Assembly (NCBI GenBank): GCA_965216325.1
Contig: OZ244160.1
Coordinates: forward strand, 2,784,001-2,848,000
Direction of reading: 5' to 3'
From: Coraliomargarita sp.
GTDB lineage: Bacteria > Verrucomicrobiota > Verrucomicrobiia > Opitutales > Coraliomargaritaceae
Length of the DNA stretch: 64,000 bases
The translations under genes were made by a program, and so were the position numbers. Shown piece by piece: positions 57,858-64,000 of the stretch. The notes below the pieces were generated by a model. The model saw only the letters and a program-made list of their open reading frames with translations. It was not told the DNA's origin and ran no database searches. Position 1 is the first letter of the stretch. Each line of letters opens with the position of its first letter.

Positions 57858-57870
57858 TTCTTATTCTTTT

Positions 57871-57919
<49 letters not shown>

Positions 57920-58029
57920 TTGAACAAAGCCGCTGCGCGGCGGCTGTTGGTTAAGTGCTTGGGCGTCTTGGTGGGTGGTTTCTAAAGTCAAAAGTTCCGG
58001 GCTAGGCTGAGTTGCCCCAACCTGCCCGG

Positions 58030-58996
58030 ATGAAAAAAAAATACCAAATCATCAAAGACTCAGTGTTCGCAAACGTATCAACAGTTCTATGCGCATGTCC
58101 ATAGCAAAGCTCACTCGCCTCGTAGTCGTAAGGCTTATCTGGATTGGGTCAATCGCTTGGGCGAGCACTACCAACCGAAGGGCCCGGGGTTGCGCCGTCT
58201 ATCGGAACGTCAGGTGTTGGACTATCTGATCTACCTGCGCGACGACCAAAAGCTGGCCGCGTCAACGGTGAATCAGGCGCTGGTGCCGATTCGGACGCTT
58301 TACCGTGATGTGCTGGCCCGGGAGTGGAAGCTGTGGTCGGAGTTCACGCTGCAGCGGCGCGAGCCTTTGCCGAGCGTGCTCACGCGCGACGAGGTGCGGC
58401 GTGTGCTGGCCTGTGTGCATGAGGGTCGCTTTCGGGCGGTGCTCTCGCTGATCTATCACTGTGGTTTGCGTTTACAGGAGGCCTTGCAGCTCAAGCCGAC
58501 GGATATCGACTCTGGACGCGGCGTCGTTCGCGTGCGCCATGGCAAGGGCAACAAGGCGCGTGAGGTGCCGATTTGCCCGGCAATGGTCAAGCGGTTGCGG
58601 GCATTTTATAAGTGCCACCGCAATCCGGACTGGCTGTTCCCTGGCGTGGGGCGCGGCTGGAAGCAGTCAGGCATCTCTCAGGCGCAGGCGATGCACCGCA
58701 GCGCCAAGCCGATGAGCAGCTCGGCGCTGGAGATGGCGATGCGGATCATCCGCGCCAATAGTGGCATCAACAAGCACTTCACGGTGCATACCTTGCGGCA
58801 TAGTTTTGCCACACATTTGCTGGAGGACGGGGTGTCGATTCGTCAGGTCAGTCGCTATCTCGGCCACTCGGAACTGAAGAGCACGCTGGTGTATCTGCAT
58901 GTAACCGAGCTAAGTGAAGAAGGTGGCCGCCAGAGCCAGAGCGCACTGTTTGACAGTGTGATCGCTCCGGCCTTGTCGAAGCGCAGCAAGCGTTGA
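58030..58996 (+). CDS. Tyrosine recombinase (phage-integrase family), frameshifted in an A9 run right after ATG 58030
   Basis: GLR, GKG, HTLRH, LGH and Y catalytic residues; the frame of ORF 58157 stays open back to 58034 and encodes a SAM-like N-domain (HSPRSRKAYLDWVNRLGEHY). Confidence 0.85.
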
Positions 58997-60096
58997 GGCT
59001 GGCCGATCTACTGCGGCGGCATTGGCCGGAGTATGTCAGCGCGCGCGGCGGGGCACACAAGATCCCTGCCGCACACTGGCGAGCAGTCGAAGCCGTCTTG
59101 AGTTGTCGCACGTCTAGATTGGGCGGGCATGTGCACCTGTGTGCCAGTTGCGAGCGTGAGCACTATGTGTATCACAGCTGCAACCATCGAGCCTGTCCGA
59201 GTTGTGGAGGGCGCACGCAGCAGCTGTGGTCAGCACGCCAACAGGCTCGCCGCTTACCGGTGCCATACTTCATGCTGACCTTCACGGTGCCCGAGCAACT
59301 GCGCGGGTTCTTCCTGCGCTACGACCGGGTCGCCTATCAGTTGTTGTTCGCGGCCAGCTCTGGAGCGATCAAAGAACTGTTTGCCAATCCGAAGCACTTT
59401 GGTGGCGAGCCGGGCTTTGTGGCGGTGCTGCATACGTGGACACGGCAAGTGCAGTATCACCCGCATGTGCACGTGCTCGTGCCTGCCGCTGCACTCAGCC
59501 AGAGCGGATGCGAAGTAATCCGCGCCAAGCACGAGAACTACCTGTTGCCGTATGCCGCGCTGGCGCGCAGCTATCGCGACCAGTTCCTGCGTGCGTTGCG
59601 CGAGAAACATCCGGGCCGGTCTGCTGAACTGGATCCACAACTCGCGCGTATGGATTGGAACGTGAACGTTCAACCGGTTGGTCGTGGCAAACGTGCACTA
59701 CGCTACCTCGCGGCGTATGTGGGCAAGAGCGCCTTCAGTGAAGAACGTCTGGCTGGTTACGATGCGCAAGGGCGTGTGCGGCTATGGTGGACCGATTCGG
59801 CTACGGGCCAGCGCAGGCTGATGGCTCTTGAGCCCGCCGAGCTGATACGCCGCTGGCTGCTGCATGTTCTGCCCAAGGGGCTGACACGCGTGCGGCACTA
59901 TGGCACCCTCTCAGCTGCCGCGCGGGATAAATACCGCAGGCTGCGCTTCCTGCTCGGCGGCCGTGCACCTGCGATCCAACTACCTGAAGAACAGCCTCTG
60001 CGTTGTCCTTGTTGCGAGGGGCAGCTGCACCGCGTCGGCAAGCTCCGTCCAGTCCGTGGCCCACCGCTGAGCACCGCCTTACTTTACCGCAAATGA
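58993..60096 (+). CDS. IS91-family rolling-circle (Y2/HUH) transposase
   Basis: Zn-binding CASC and SCNHRACPSC, FMLTFTVP, LHTW...YHPHVH HUH motif, YLAAY (YxxxY), RVRHYG, CPCC; TTG start overlaps the recombinase stop. Confidence 0.92.
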   Translation: MRLADLLRRHWPEYVSARGGAHKIPAAHWRAVEAVLSCRTSRLGGHVHLCASCEREHYVYHSCNHRACPSCGGRTQQLWSARQQARRLPVPYFMLTFTVPEQLRGFFLRYDRVAYQLLFAASSGAIKELFANPKHFGGEPGFVAVLHTWTRQVQYHPHVHVLVPAAALSQSGCEVIRAKHENYLLPYAALARSYRDQFLRALREKHPGRSAELDPQLARMDWNVNVQPVGRGKRALRYLAAYVGKSAFSEERLAGYDAQGRVRLWWTDSATGQRRLMALEPAELIRRWLLHVLPKGLTRVRHYGTLSAAARDKYRRLRFLLGGRAPAIQLPEEQPLRCPCCEGQLHRVGKLRPVRGPPLSTALLYRK

Positions 60097-60289
60097 TCAA
60101 CCGTGTTCAACAGACAGGCCGCAGCCCCGAATCCCATCAGATTTGGGCCGTGCTTGCTTGTGCCCGTTTTTGGGATGTATCCGTAGCGTGGATACGAAAA
60201 CGCCATTATTTAGCTGCGCCCACACCAACTCTCTGTGCTGATGTGGTTTTACGGCATGATGCCGGAAAACCACATGCCTGCCGCAGCTT

Positions 60290-60310
60290 GAGATTTACAA
60301 ATCTCCTAGC
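60290..60310 (+). other. oriIS-like motif (candidate HUH nick site)
   Basis: GAGATTT-AC-AAATCTC hairpin plus CTAG about 200 nt downstream of the transposase; resembles the AAATTCCTAT-type oriIS end. Confidence 0.5.
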
Positions 60311-60395
60311 CGCGTCGATCCGAACGCCCCTCCAGCAGTGCCGCCAAAAGCGTTTCGCATATACTAAGCCGCGCCGTTAATCCAAGGGCGGGCTT

Positions 60396-60451
60396 GTTCA
60401 ACAATCAGTTATCAACGCGGCTGCGCGCGATTGATAACTTCAGGGTTAGGC
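60396..60451 (+). repeat. attC-like hairpin at the right end of the element (not of the host attC family)
   Basis: GTTCAAC (RYYYAAC)-AATCA-GTTATCAA-CGCG..CGCG-A-TTGATAAC-TTCAGG-GTTAGGC (GTTRRRY). Confidence 0.8.
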
Positions 60452-60733
60452 CTTTTTGTAATTCTTTAAGTCTCTATAGAAGTTTTCATGGCTCCCATAC
60501 GTAAGTAGACTTATTTCACTTTCATCGAAGCTATAGGAAAGTAGTGTCAGCTGTTTATTGATTTTAAACTTATGGACGAATATTCCTGCAAGATCGCCAG
60601 CTTTTTCCTGACCAATGCTAGGATTTGAGAGGATGTCTAAAACTGCATCGTCTAATTCTTTCTTTTCCTGCTTTTTGAGCTTCTTCATTTTCCTGCTGAA
60701 CGCAGGGGATACGTAGACCTTCTGTTTAGCCAA
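60446..60733 (-). CDS. RelE/ParE family toxin (cassette)
   Basis: SPAFSRKMKKL...NPSIGQEKAGDLAGIFVHKF...GSHENFY; the stop codon lies within R'' GCCTAAC. Confidence 0.88.
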   Translation of the reverse strand: MAKQKVYVSPAFSRKMKKLKKQEKKELDDAVLDILSNPSIGQEKAGDLAGIFVHKFKINKQLTLLSYSFDESEISLLTYGSHENFYRDLKNYKKA

Positions 60734-60944
60734 AAGTATATTCCTCCTTCTCAGCTTCTTTCATTTCCTCCATTGCTAATAGTGTTTCTTTAATGAAGCT
60801 GAAGGGTAGGTCTGGATTCTCTTCGGCAGCCTTTCCGATCGTTGCCCAATATTCCAACTGTGAAGTCATTGATCGATGCTCCACTTTGGATCTGGTTTTG
60901 GCTTCTTTTGCGAGATGGTCGGATATGCGAATAACAGTGCTCAT
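60726..60944 (-). CDS. ParD-like (RHH) antitoxin (cassette)
   Basis: IRISD.L..EA......HRSMTSQLEYWATIGK.AEENPDLPFSFIKE; overlaps the toxin start. Confidence 0.85.
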   Translation of the reverse strand: MSTVIRISDHLAKEAKTRSKVEHRSMTSQLEYWATIGKAAEENPDLPFSFIKETLLAMEEMKEAEKEEYTFG

Positions 60945-61059: not shown

Positions 61060-61711
61060 GTATGCCCGGCATGTTGATAAACTAATATGGTTAAAGTCCA
61101 TTGTGAGAGCCCTGAATAACAACTCAATCACTAGAGAAGCACAAGTGCGGAATCGTGAGGTTTCGTGCGGAAGCAGTGTGGATCAAACCGACGAGCCGAT
61201 GTATAAGAACGTCATAGGAGGCACAGAGGACGGGCGAGCGGGCCCGGGATCGCGAAGCCCATCAGGTCAGATCCGATGTGTAAATGGCGCGGTTGTGTCG
61301 GGGCAGTGTATCAACTTATCCGGGGAGGCCTCGGAGGTTCGCGTTGTGGCTTCAATGTGCCAATCAAGCATCGCAGTTGAAGCAGGGATGCTTCGATGAT
61401 GAACTTCCGAGGAGTCAGCAAAGGGCATAGTAGCCGCGGAGACGAGCTTGCCAGAGGCAGGACGGACTCACGAAGCGGTGAAGGCCTGAAGTCGATCATC
61501 ATCGGGACTCATTCAGTAGACACGTCCATAAACGCCGACCGTAGCGCGAGGACCTCTGATCTCTGTCTGATACAGCTCGAAGATACGTCTACTTTTGTAG
61601 GCGCGACAACCGCCTTAAAACAGACTGCGTAGCACTGCGATCAGTCTGGCTGCGGACCCGCATGGCAGGTGGTGTGGGAGCGGGGGGAGTTAATGCCCCT
61701 CGCTACCCGAT
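61060..61711 (+). mobile_element. ORF-less group IIC (attC-type) intron, 652 nt
   Basis: 5' GTATGCCCGGCATG, core GAGTCAGC...GCATAGTAG and GAAGGCC, DV with CGC triad, DVI ending CTACCCGAT; no RT. Confidence 0.88.
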
Positions 61712-61720
61712 TTCTACCAT

Positions 61721-62338: not shown

Positions 62339-64000
62339 GTATGCCCGGCATGTTGATAAACTAATATGGTTAAAGTCCATTGTGAGAGCCCTGAATAACA
62401 ACTCAATCACTAGAGAAGCACAAGTGCGGAATCGTGAGGTTTCGTGCGGAAGCAGTGTGGATCAAACCGACGAGCCGATGTATAAGAACGTCATAGGAGG
62501 CACAGAGGACGGGCGAGCGGGCCCAGGATCGCGAAGCCCATCAGGTCAGATCCGATGTGTAAATGGCGCGGTTGTGTCGGGGCAGTGTATCAACTTATCC
62601 GGGGAGGCCTCTATCTGTGGCGAGCGTGAGCTTCAATGTGCTCACTCAAGCGCTTGCAGCGGTGACAGCAATGCCGTCGCTGTCACGGATGGAGGAGTCA
62701 GCAAAGGGCATAGTAGCCGCGGCGACGAGCCTGCCAGTGGCAGGATGGACTCACGAAGCGGTGAAGGCCCGCACTACGCATGGCAACCGGACTTGCCTCT
62801 GGAGCCCACCCATAAACGCCGGATGGCGCGCGGGCACGGGAATCCGGAGCAATACAGCCAGTTGCAAGCCGAGCTATTGGAGGCGATCTTCAGTAGCACC
62901 AACCTCGAAGCGGCCTATGGTCGTGTCAAAGCCAATGGCGGAGCCGCTGGTGTAGACGGCATTAGCTGGGCCGAGTTTACGGAATGGTTCATCCCGCGCC
63001 GTGAAGGTCTGCTGCGCCGCTTGCATCTGGGTAACTACCGCCCGAGTGCGGTGCGTCGTTGCTACATCCCAAAATCGAACGGCAAGAAACGCCCTTTGGG
63101 CGTGCCGAACCTGTTCGATCGGATCGTGCAACAAGCGATCCACCAAGTGCTCAGCCCGATGCTGGAGCCTTCGTTCAGCGAGCATAGTTTCGGGTTCCGC
63201 CCCAAGCGCGGCGGCCAACAGGCCGTCCGCGCCCTGCACGGGCACATCCGCAGCGGCTATCGCTGGGCAATCGACATCGACCTGAAGTCGTTCTTCGACA
63301 CAGTCCCGCACGCGCGTGCGTTGGAAGCACTACGCAATCGCCTCGGTGGGGATGGCCCCGTCGTGCGGTTGATTAAGCGCTACTTGGAAGCGGGCTATGT
63401 CGAACTGGACCAGTTCCACGAAACGGTCGAAGGTATGCCACAGGGCGGGCCCTTGAGTCCCTTGCTGTCGAATCTGGTGCTGGATGCACTGGATAAGGAA
63501 CTGGAGGCTCGGGGGCACCACTTCGTGCGCTACGCCGACGACTTTGTCGTGGTCGTTCAAAGCGAACGCGCTGCCAAGCGCGTCTTCTCCAGCATCTGCG
63601 ACTTCGTCGAGGGCGAGCTGGGGCTGACGGTCAACCGTGAGAAAAGCGCGGTGCGCCCGGTGCGTGAACTGAGCTACTTAGGCTTCAGTTTCCGTCAGGC
63701 CAAGATCGTGGTCAGTGCGCAGGCACTGGCCGAGTTCAAGTATCGTCTCAAGTGTTTCAGCTGTCGAAGCTGGAGCGTGTCGATGGACTACCGCCTGTAT
63801 CAGCTTCGTCAATACGCTCGAGGTTGGATGGGCTATTACGGCCTGTCCGAAGTTTACAGCGTGTGGCTGTCGATAGACAAGTGGCTTCGCAGGCGAGTTC
63901 GCATGTGCTACTGGCGCATGTGGAAACGCCCGCGACGTCGCTATCTCAATCTGGTGAAAATTGGCTCCAATAGTAAGTTTGCTGGTGGCTTTGCTAAAAG
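62339..64000 (+). mobile_element. Group IIC (attC-type) intron encoding a reverse transcriptase, truncated by the window end
   Basis: Same 5' end and domain I core as 61060, followed by an RT ORF. Confidence 0.92.
62823..64000 (+). CDS. ltrA: Group II intron reverse transcriptase/maturase (partial; absent from the ORF track because it has no stop in the window)
   Basis: Manual translation: VKANGGAAGVDG, YIPKSNGKKRPLGVP, DRIVQQA, SFGFRP, DIDLKSFFD, GMPQGGPLSPLLSN, RYADDF (63531), YLGF, RGWMGYY. Confidence 0.95.
   Translation, partial: MARGHGNPEQYSQLQAELLEAIFSSTNLEAAYGRVKANGGAAGVDGISWAEFTEWFIPRREGLLRRLHLGNYRPSAVRRCYIPKSNGKKRPLGVPNLFDRIVQQAIHQVLSPMLEPSFSEHSFGFRPKRGGQQAVRALHGHIRSGYRWAIDIDLKSFFDTVPHARALEALRNRLGGDGPVVRLIKRYLEAGYVELDQFHETVEGMPQGGPLSPLLSNLVLDALDKELEARGHHFVRYADDFVVVVQSERAAKRVFSSICDFVEGELGLTVNREKSAVRPVRELSYLGFSFRQAKIVVSAQALAEFKYRLKCFSCRSWSVSMDYRLYQLRQYARGWMGYYGLSEVYSVWLSIDKWLRRRVRMCYWRMWKRPRRRYLNLVKIGSNSKFAGGFAK

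Follow-up and report, generated by a model that had tools for sequence, protein, structure and literature searches.

A cassette-like element of the IS91 family that very probably homes to integron attC sites

How does a unit with its own recombinase and transposase genes come to lie within the attC site of an integron cassette, with its genes running against those of the array? The question is raised by a 64,000-nt stretch of the genome of Coraliomargarita sp. (assembly GCA_965216325.1, contig OZ244160.1, forward-strand positions 2,784,001 to 2,848,000), which was analyzed as a whole and is called the window here, and in which positions 57920–60445 interrupt the attC site of a ParE/ParD toxin-antitoxin cassette. 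We found that this segment is a discrete mobile unit of 2.5 kb, with a recombinase gene, a transposase gene and an attC-like right end. We have little doubt that it is an attC-homing element of the IS91 family with a cassette-like design, which enters the site on its R'' side, at G|TT and without duplication, its genes opposite to those of the cassettes.

The genome, assembled as one contig of 3.06 Mb, contains three full-length copies of the unit, all sharing their ends. Apart from a single substitution and one homopolymer run whose length varies by one A, they are identical, and their flanks diverge exactly at 57920 and at 60445/6. Because three full-length copies are near-identical and their flanks are unlike from the exact ends outward, chance can be excluded. 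The left flanks are three unlike attC-type sequences, each terminating in CTGG, and the right flanks read TTAGGC, ATGTGT and TTCGGT. The right terminus of the unit reads ...TTCAGGG; placement of the junctions is ambiguous by at most 2 nt, because the left flank has GG in common with the element's right end. A preliminary description of the window, made from the letters alone, had given these boundaries with their motifs and counts, and they are borne out by the three copies with identical ends, none of which ends elsewhere, for instance at an oriIS-like motif.

All three copies lie at ...CTGG| in attC-type sites, opposite to the cassettes. In the window, the cassette genes (for a small PLDc_N protein, ParDE and YefM-YoeB) are all on the − strand, and the motif of the host attC family is on the + strand at all five sites of the array; the + strand of the window is therefore the bottom strand of attC, and the element runs against the cassettes. 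The second copy is found ~4 kb inside the array of another intI and is likewise inverted relative to that array, and the third (L003) occupies a decayed attC beside another attC, ~0.5 Mb from the nearest intI. Three integron integrase genes are present in the genome, all over the TIGR02249 cut-off (358, 357 and 340 bits vs 265), one of them on the + strand, ~6 kb outside the window on its right. Regular expressions for attC were very noisy, and only clusters legible by eye were used; an Rfam scan of the region gave no match to the attC model, returning group II intron domains only. Clusters of attC without an integrase were also seen near 0.555, 1.30 and 2.27–2.28 Mb of the host genome. A replication-strand bias of the target strand was considered and rejected, as the three copies have no common orientation relative to the inferred forks; the cumulative GC skew of this genome follows an atypical course that turns near 1.14 and 1.8 Mb.

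Empty target sites, which the preliminary description had proposed to look for, were present in relatives. In G002:C152, of the same genus, an identical 43-nt attC core is uninterrupted and followed by TTAGGT (CTGG|TTAGGT), and the same genome also has an intact counterpart of the third copy's target. In G016, of another genus, a ParDE cassette 73% identical to that of the window reads CTACTGG|TTAGGCC without an insert. The flanks are contiguous in these empty sites, and no target duplication was found at the element junctions, whether judged by the three copies, by the empty sites in relatives or by the contiguous flanks of an Escherichia coli copy described below, in agreement with the earlier claim. 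Further evidence came from public sequencing runs, for which assembled contigs rather than raw reads were used from 4 of the 24 runs listed. The depth of the element was 3.2–4.0 times that of its flanks, the three known flank pairs were recovered, and a fourth right flank, GGG|TTCTCAC, was found in one metagenome run. A DNA similarity search against plasmids returned nothing close to the unit.

The two genes had been read as a coupled tyrosine recombinase and an IS91-like Y2 HUH protein, and Pfam matches to both agreed with this reading. The transposase matched Zn_Tnp_IS91 (E 5e-29, 100.6 bits) and Y2_Tnp (E 4.2e-43, 147.9 bits) and scored 339.3 bits with NF033538, against a cut-off of 125; the HUH residues H156, H158 and H160 and the tyrosines Y238 and Y242 are invariant in 15 of 15 aligned sequences. 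By these matches, the transposase is an ordinary IS91-family protein. The proposal of a new element class was overstated in this respect, although the target rule and the cassette-like design do appear to be new.

The recombinase matched Pfam Phage_integrase (E 1.2e-36). In the window copy its frame is broken by an A9 run at 58033–58041. Because A8 stands in the two other genomic copies and in contigs from three runs, and with A8 the frame is open for 321 amino acids from the ATG at 58030, the frameshift is either an assembly error or a change private to this copy, and a homopolymer error of the assembly is likely. The best profile was that of integron integrases, TIGR02249, with 192.1 bits, under the cut-off of 265 (XerC 142, XerD 136). 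The catalytic residues R147, K172, H253, R256, H279 and Y288 (R-K-HxxR-H-Y) are invariant in 15 of 15 sequences. In a small tree, the recombinase clustered with the three IntI of the host, apart from the host's Xer-like proteins (100/99); the exact position of IntI in this tree was weakly supported (81/74), with long branches. We accordingly class the protein, by profile and alignment, as an IntI-like tyrosine recombinase without the IntI insert.

In 13 of 18 elements, the recombinase gene runs 1–29 nt into the transposase gene. A predicted complex of the two proteins scored 0.50, with the best control at 0.10. In calibration, 116 of 157 solved complexes and 2 of 215 mismatches attained a score of 0.50, but the scores of 0.60 or less belonged to just 18 of the 157 solved complexes and to both mismatches. 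Agreement between prediction runs was at least 94% of contacts, and the predicted local distance difference test (pLDDT) values of the partners were at least 79. The model thus gives weak support to a recombinase-transposase complex.

Behind the transposase gene lie ~300 nt of non-coding sequence and then GCGGGCTTGTTCAAC, an inverted copy of the left end. The complementarity of 13/15 positions between GTTGAACAAAGCCGC (57919–57933) and 60388–60402, compared as the reverse complement of the latter, had been noted before and held when recomputed. The segment 60396–60451 folds as a hairpin (−12.7 kcal/mol, z −2.86; 2 of 200 shuffles fold as well). Its stem had been described as free of extrahelical bases, which is incorrect, as A60430 is bulged in the fold of the + strand. 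The hairpin core occurs three times in the genome, each time within the element; the terminal hairpin follows the transposase and belongs to the element rather than to the ParDE cassette, as first supposed. The unit hence has the anatomy of a cassette, starting with TTGAAC, which is complementary to R'' GTTCAAC, and carrying its own attC-like site at the 3' end. An imperfect palindrome at 60243–60273 (GTGGTTTTACGGCA...TGCCGGAAAACCAC), noticed by eye between the transposase gene and the right end, may, by analogy with IS91 and IS801, represent a second palindrome on the origin side.

The hairpin is under selection, as indicated by covariation in nine close relatives. Paired cells made up 91.7% of the alignment, compared to 26–37% when the partner was slid, and four pairs had changed on both sides; the covariation score was 0.210 vs 0.083, and none of 500 shuffles scored as high. 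Between clades the stem sequence is wholly different, with pairing retained. Covariation of the left end with the R'' box was also tried and discarded: both are invariant in intact elements, and the variants with GCTCAAC turned out to be solo right ends. These occur at four places in G015 and two in G012 (L060, L065–L068 and L056) and consist of the inverted repeat, the hairpin and G|TT, with GCTCAAC as the R'' box; the recombinase gene, the transposase gene and the left end are all lacking nearby. Such solo ends may be leftovers that now serve as the attC of a neighbouring cassette.

Relatives of the transposase were found at 37 loci in species-representative genomes of Verrucomicrobiota, Gammaproteobacteria and Chloroflexota (32–76% identity over the best segment), and 13 of 401 genomes in a phylum sample had a strong match. 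Wherever the ends lie on the contig, the left end in all three phyla reads g|TTGAAC-nAAGCsGC followed by a small palindrome, so that the TTGAAC start singled out by the preliminary description is conserved. The right end reads ...GGCTTnGTTCAAC, then a hairpin and a short spacer ending in G (or A), and is followed by TT. In junctions pooled across clades, which include kin and duplicated flanks and are not independent, the left flank ended in G at 39 of 41 and the right flank started with TT at 28 of 33, with AT at four and with TC at one; the right end of L013 was placed by eye. The reconstructed targets are textbook attC folds in Gammaproteobacteria and in the verrucomicrobial locus L014 (GCCTAAC...G|TTAGGC and similar). 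Seven loci of Verrucomicrobiota and Gammaproteobacteria have a right-hand neighbour gene, which is on the opposite strand in all seven, and at four of these loci the TAA of the R'' box serves as its stop codon. Among the copies examined, none was oriented forward, and all are reversed at R''.

Some genomes have several copies, with at least six in G091 and at least three in G014, all reading ...CTGG|TTGAAC in attC-like flanks. Head-to-tail pairs were found in L024 (182–260) and in G334 (L132, G334:C2, two copies 2.49 kb apart), and such pairs would be expected if the element's own hairpin can serve as a target. The second copy of the G334 tandem starts with ATGAAC, not TTGAAC. Rhizobial relatives (36% identity; L048–L050) are three identical copies on pRL7, pRL10 and pRL11 of Rhizobium johnstonii 3841, two of which lie directly upstream of an IS5-family transposase gene.

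One relative (L108) resides in a class 1 integron on the E. coli IncC plasmid NZ_LT985243.1, at 11205–13177, and has 44% identity to the gammaproteobacterial transposase. The order of this integron is intI1, aac(6')-Ib3, aadA2, cmlA1, aadA1, the element (reversed), qacEdelta1 and sul1. From its junctions, ...GGCTTGAACGAATTG|TTGAAC... and ...TTATTTG|TTAGACATTATTTGCC..., the cut is GTCTAA|C on the top strand of attC(aadA1), the mirror image of the IntI crossover, for which the R' box is the location. Empty sites, among the matches listed of 3132 matching plasmid records, have the two flanks contiguous at 85 bp. The element itself was present in 1 of 72,556 plasmid records and in none of 5426 complete E. 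coli genomes; a stretch of a Shewanella sp. ANA-3 plasmid matches its right end at 95% identity. Together with the genomic copies and the relatives, the site in attC(aadA1) confirms the earlier proposal that attC is entered at G|TT, on the R'' side and backwards to the array.

The route by which the unit reaches attC can be stated less firmly. A little short of even confidence is what we give to a mechanism in which the transposase supplies a single-stranded circle, to be joined to the top strand of attC by the element's recombinase. The Y2 HUH transposase would copy out one strand as a circle, as IS91 does, and by analogy the circle would be of the strand antisense to tnpA, which here is the − strand of the window; according to an excerpt of PMC13181058, IS91 inserts a single-stranded circle of the strand antisense to tnpA. 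Within this circle, pairing of the left end with its inverted copy near the right end would complete, below the hairpin, a perfect 7-bp R box (GTTCAAC/GTTGAAC, 13/15 with the extension) that is lacking in the integrated element, and the folded circle would look like an attC bottom strand. The IntI-like recombinase would then cut at 5'-RYYYAA|C, both in the circle site and in a resident attC that is folded, and would exchange one strand, the resident strand joined being the top strand of attC, a roughly thousandfold poorer substrate of IntI. Replication would fix the insertion.

Tyrosine recombinases cut with their binding arm 5' of the cut. This chemistry would put the exchange on the − strand of the window, where the target reads 5'-GCCTAA|C and the circularised element 5'-GTTCAA|C. 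Exchange of one strand followed by replication, as in integrons, fits better than a classical reaction on both strands because the partners share little beyond G|TT and nothing is duplicated. Neighbouring cassettes would keep a site, because insertion leaves attC-like hairpins on both sides. The full reading, a two-enzyme "mirror-image cassette" in which the circle made by an IS91 transposase folds as an attC mimic and an insert-less IntI-like recombinase joins the attC strand that IntI ignores, is possible, and we put it forward tentatively.

Several observations weigh against this explanation. The IntI-specific insert, which reads the extrahelical bases of attC, is ~32 amino acids long and present in the three host IntI, but it is missing in six of six aligned element recombinases. 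The bulge lies on the 3' arm of the hairpin here, on the 5' arm in L013, L014 and the E. coli copy, and is absent in Chloroflexota; extrahelical-base polarity was therefore dropped as a proof of the mimicked strand, and because the bulge side varies, mimicry of one strand polarity cannot be claimed by this criterion. Most targets in Chloroflexota have no clear attC hairpin fold. The rhizobial relatives share the gene pair, the left end and the hairpin at the right end and yet lie outside attC sites, and the recombinase is for that reason not tied to attC targeting as such. Neither the circle junction TTCAGGG|TTGAAC nor an empty-site molecule was seen in the assembled contigs of the four runs, which cannot show absence. 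Last, TnpA of IS91 alone inserts a bottom-strand circle (excerpt of PMC13181058), which speaks for a transposase-only reading.

In that reading, a strong rival to which we give somewhat less credence than to the first, the Y2 HUH transposase performs both excision and insertion and reads a hairpin, a short spacer and G| at its own end and at the target, and the recombinase is an accessory (a regulator, terminator aid, multimer resolver or excisionase), like Orf121, whose gene takes the corresponding place in IS91. According to the same excerpt, Orf121, whose stop overlaps the tnpA start, merely modulates IS91 insertion, and the target and terIS tetranucleotides of IS91 are alike; the genes of the present element overlap likewise, and its end would resemble its target because the transposase does everything. 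The left-flank tetranucleotides are mostly NTNG (T at position 2 in 30 of 38), like CTTG of IS91, although this T may just reflect the attC spacer. The rhizobial elements, inserted outside attC with the same gene pair, have AATC|, CTTG| and TTTG| as − strand flanks, and ISCR28, without a recombinase, was reported with attC sites at its end (excerpt of PMC12772301, where the data are not displayed). However, IS91-type targets are 4 nt long, whereas all three copies here, at least six in G091 and three in G014 lie at one exact base of attC, and the cut there mirrors the IntI crossover. Moreover, the flank beside the end downstream of tnpA is NNAA|, not CTTG or GTTC, and an invariant, catalytically complete recombinase exceeds the needs of a regulator.

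The recombination could also be due to the host, with IntI recombining the hairpin of a selfish reversed cassette with a resident attC and the element's enzymes serving other ends. The three intI genes over the cut-off, the full cassette anatomy (TTGAAC start, R'' GTTCAAC and final G) and the intI1 integron around the E. coli copy are consistent with this, but IntI prefers bottom strands roughly thousandfold (excerpt of PMC5371416) and would place cassettes forward at R', while every copy examined is reversed at R''. The L003 copy at its decayed attC, ~0.5 Mb from the nearest intI, and the conservation of the design together with the element's own recombinase over three phyla also make host-driven insertion improbable. 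Scarcely credible is an ordinary cassette at 57869–60401 with reversed genes, following a ParDE cassette with a foreign attC, which was the alternative offered in the preliminary description. Boxes reading AGCTAA|C and GTTCAA|C on the + strand do flank this segment, and IntI could treat it as a cassette after insertion. The three copies, however, share the right hairpin and not the left attC, a ParDE homologue has its own uninterrupted site, and the hairpin occurs three times in the genome, only with the element. As an origin of the copies, the reversed cassette is refuted by the unshared resident attC on the left.

The features of the locus are collected in Table 1. Two group II introns, at 61062–61712 and 62345–64000 on the + strand, were also observed in the window, each at CTGG|TT of a further attC site, so that in two other attC sites of the window the introns occupy the position of the IS91-type element to within 1 nt. 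The first is short and has no reverse-transcriptase open reading frame; the second encodes RVT_1 and GIIM domains and runs off the window.

Table 1 Coordinates of the mobile unit, its parts and the interrupted cassette in the window
Feature	Positions	Strand	Remarks
Mobile unit	57920..60445	+	2526 bp here, 2525 bp in the two other copies; identical ends, differing flanks
Left end	57920..57945	+	TTGAAC, AA, then palindrome AGCCGC-TGCGCG-GCGGCT (57928-57945, by reading)
Recombinase gene	58030..58996	+	Tyrosine recombinase, IntI-like by sequence, without the IntI insert
Transposase gene	58993..60096	+	IS91-family Y2 HUH; start overlaps recombinase stop by 4 nt
Inverted left-end copy	60388..60402	+	13/15; last 7 nt, GTTCAAC, are the R'' box of the hairpin
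Element attC-like site	60396..60445	+	R'' 60396-60402, stem 60407-60439, loop 60420-60425, spacer TCAGG, final G 60445
Resident attC, left (larger) part	57862..57919		Site of the ParDE cassette, host family AAC-GTGGAG...GCCGTTG...CTGG; bottom strand is the window + strand
Resident attC, remainder	60446..60451		TTAGGC; the − strand has R'' box GCCTAA|C here, with TTA giving the ParE stop codon
ParE/ParD toxin-antitoxin cassette, attC interrupted	60446..60944	−	Pfam ParE-like_toxin E 5.5e-33, ParD_like E 8.6e-19

The element has much in common with the IS91 family (IS91, IS801, IS1294 and members with an upstream recombinase such as ISShvi3), namely the Y2 HUH transposase, the absence of target duplication, two unlike ends with near-terminal palindromes, and a gene upstream of tnpA that overlaps the tnpA start with its stop. 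ISfinder lists IS91 members that have an integrase gene upstream. The element differs from the family in its target, a structured attC at G|TT rather than a tetranucleotide, in its right end, which is a full attC look-alike, and in having an IntI-like recombinase in place of orf121. The tetranucleotide of IS91, CTTG/GTTC, lies beside the end downstream of tnpA (oriIS) (excerpt of PMC13181058), and this rule does not describe the present junctions, where the − strand flanks are CTAA|, ACAT| and CGAA| in the genomic copies and NNAA| at 28 of 33 junctions overall. A full-text literature search returned no statement that IS91-type elements target attC, and the attC sites at the ISCR28 end were interpreted as passive carriage in the excerpt of PMC12772301.

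These findings point to an undescribed way of parasitising integrons, and they give a testable role to the tyrosine recombinase found with some IS91-family members. Were the mirror-image explanation true, it would supply a function for the long-unexplained recombinases associated with IS91, reveal a second, integrase-independent recombination system acting on attC, and explain how cassettes can be donated a replacement attC, solo right ends being seen in relatives. If the recombinase does the joining, attC hairpins would be substrates of a second enzyme family that uses the opposite strand, which would bear on the reshuffling of arrays, on the gain of attC sites by cassettes and on the origin of IntI.

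To our knowledge, the IS1111-attC group and the group IIC-attC introns are the only attC specialists known. The IS1111-attC group likewise comprises insertion sequences specialised on attC, with a DEDD transposase guided by RNA (excerpt of PMC11187229), but has no HUH protein, tyrosine recombinase or attC mimic. Group IIC-attC introns target attC opposite to cassette transcription (excerpt of PMC3001079) and thus resemble the element in target, in orientation against the cassettes and, in the window, in the CTGG|TT position; unlike it, they are retroelements with a ribozyme and a reverse transcriptase and not DNA recombinases. With integron cassettes recombined by IntI between attC sites, the element shares the TTRRRY start, the R''-L''-loop-L'-G end, the G|TT crossover, the absence of duplication and partner sites with almost no sequence in common. 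It is distinguished from them by its reversed position at R'', in contrast to array-oriented insertion at R' or attI, by the resident top strand that would be joined, and by its own recombinase, which lacks the IntI insert, together with a rolling-circle transposase. The element would accordingly be a third kind of attC specialist, present in at least three phyla and, in one copy, in a clinical class 1 integron.

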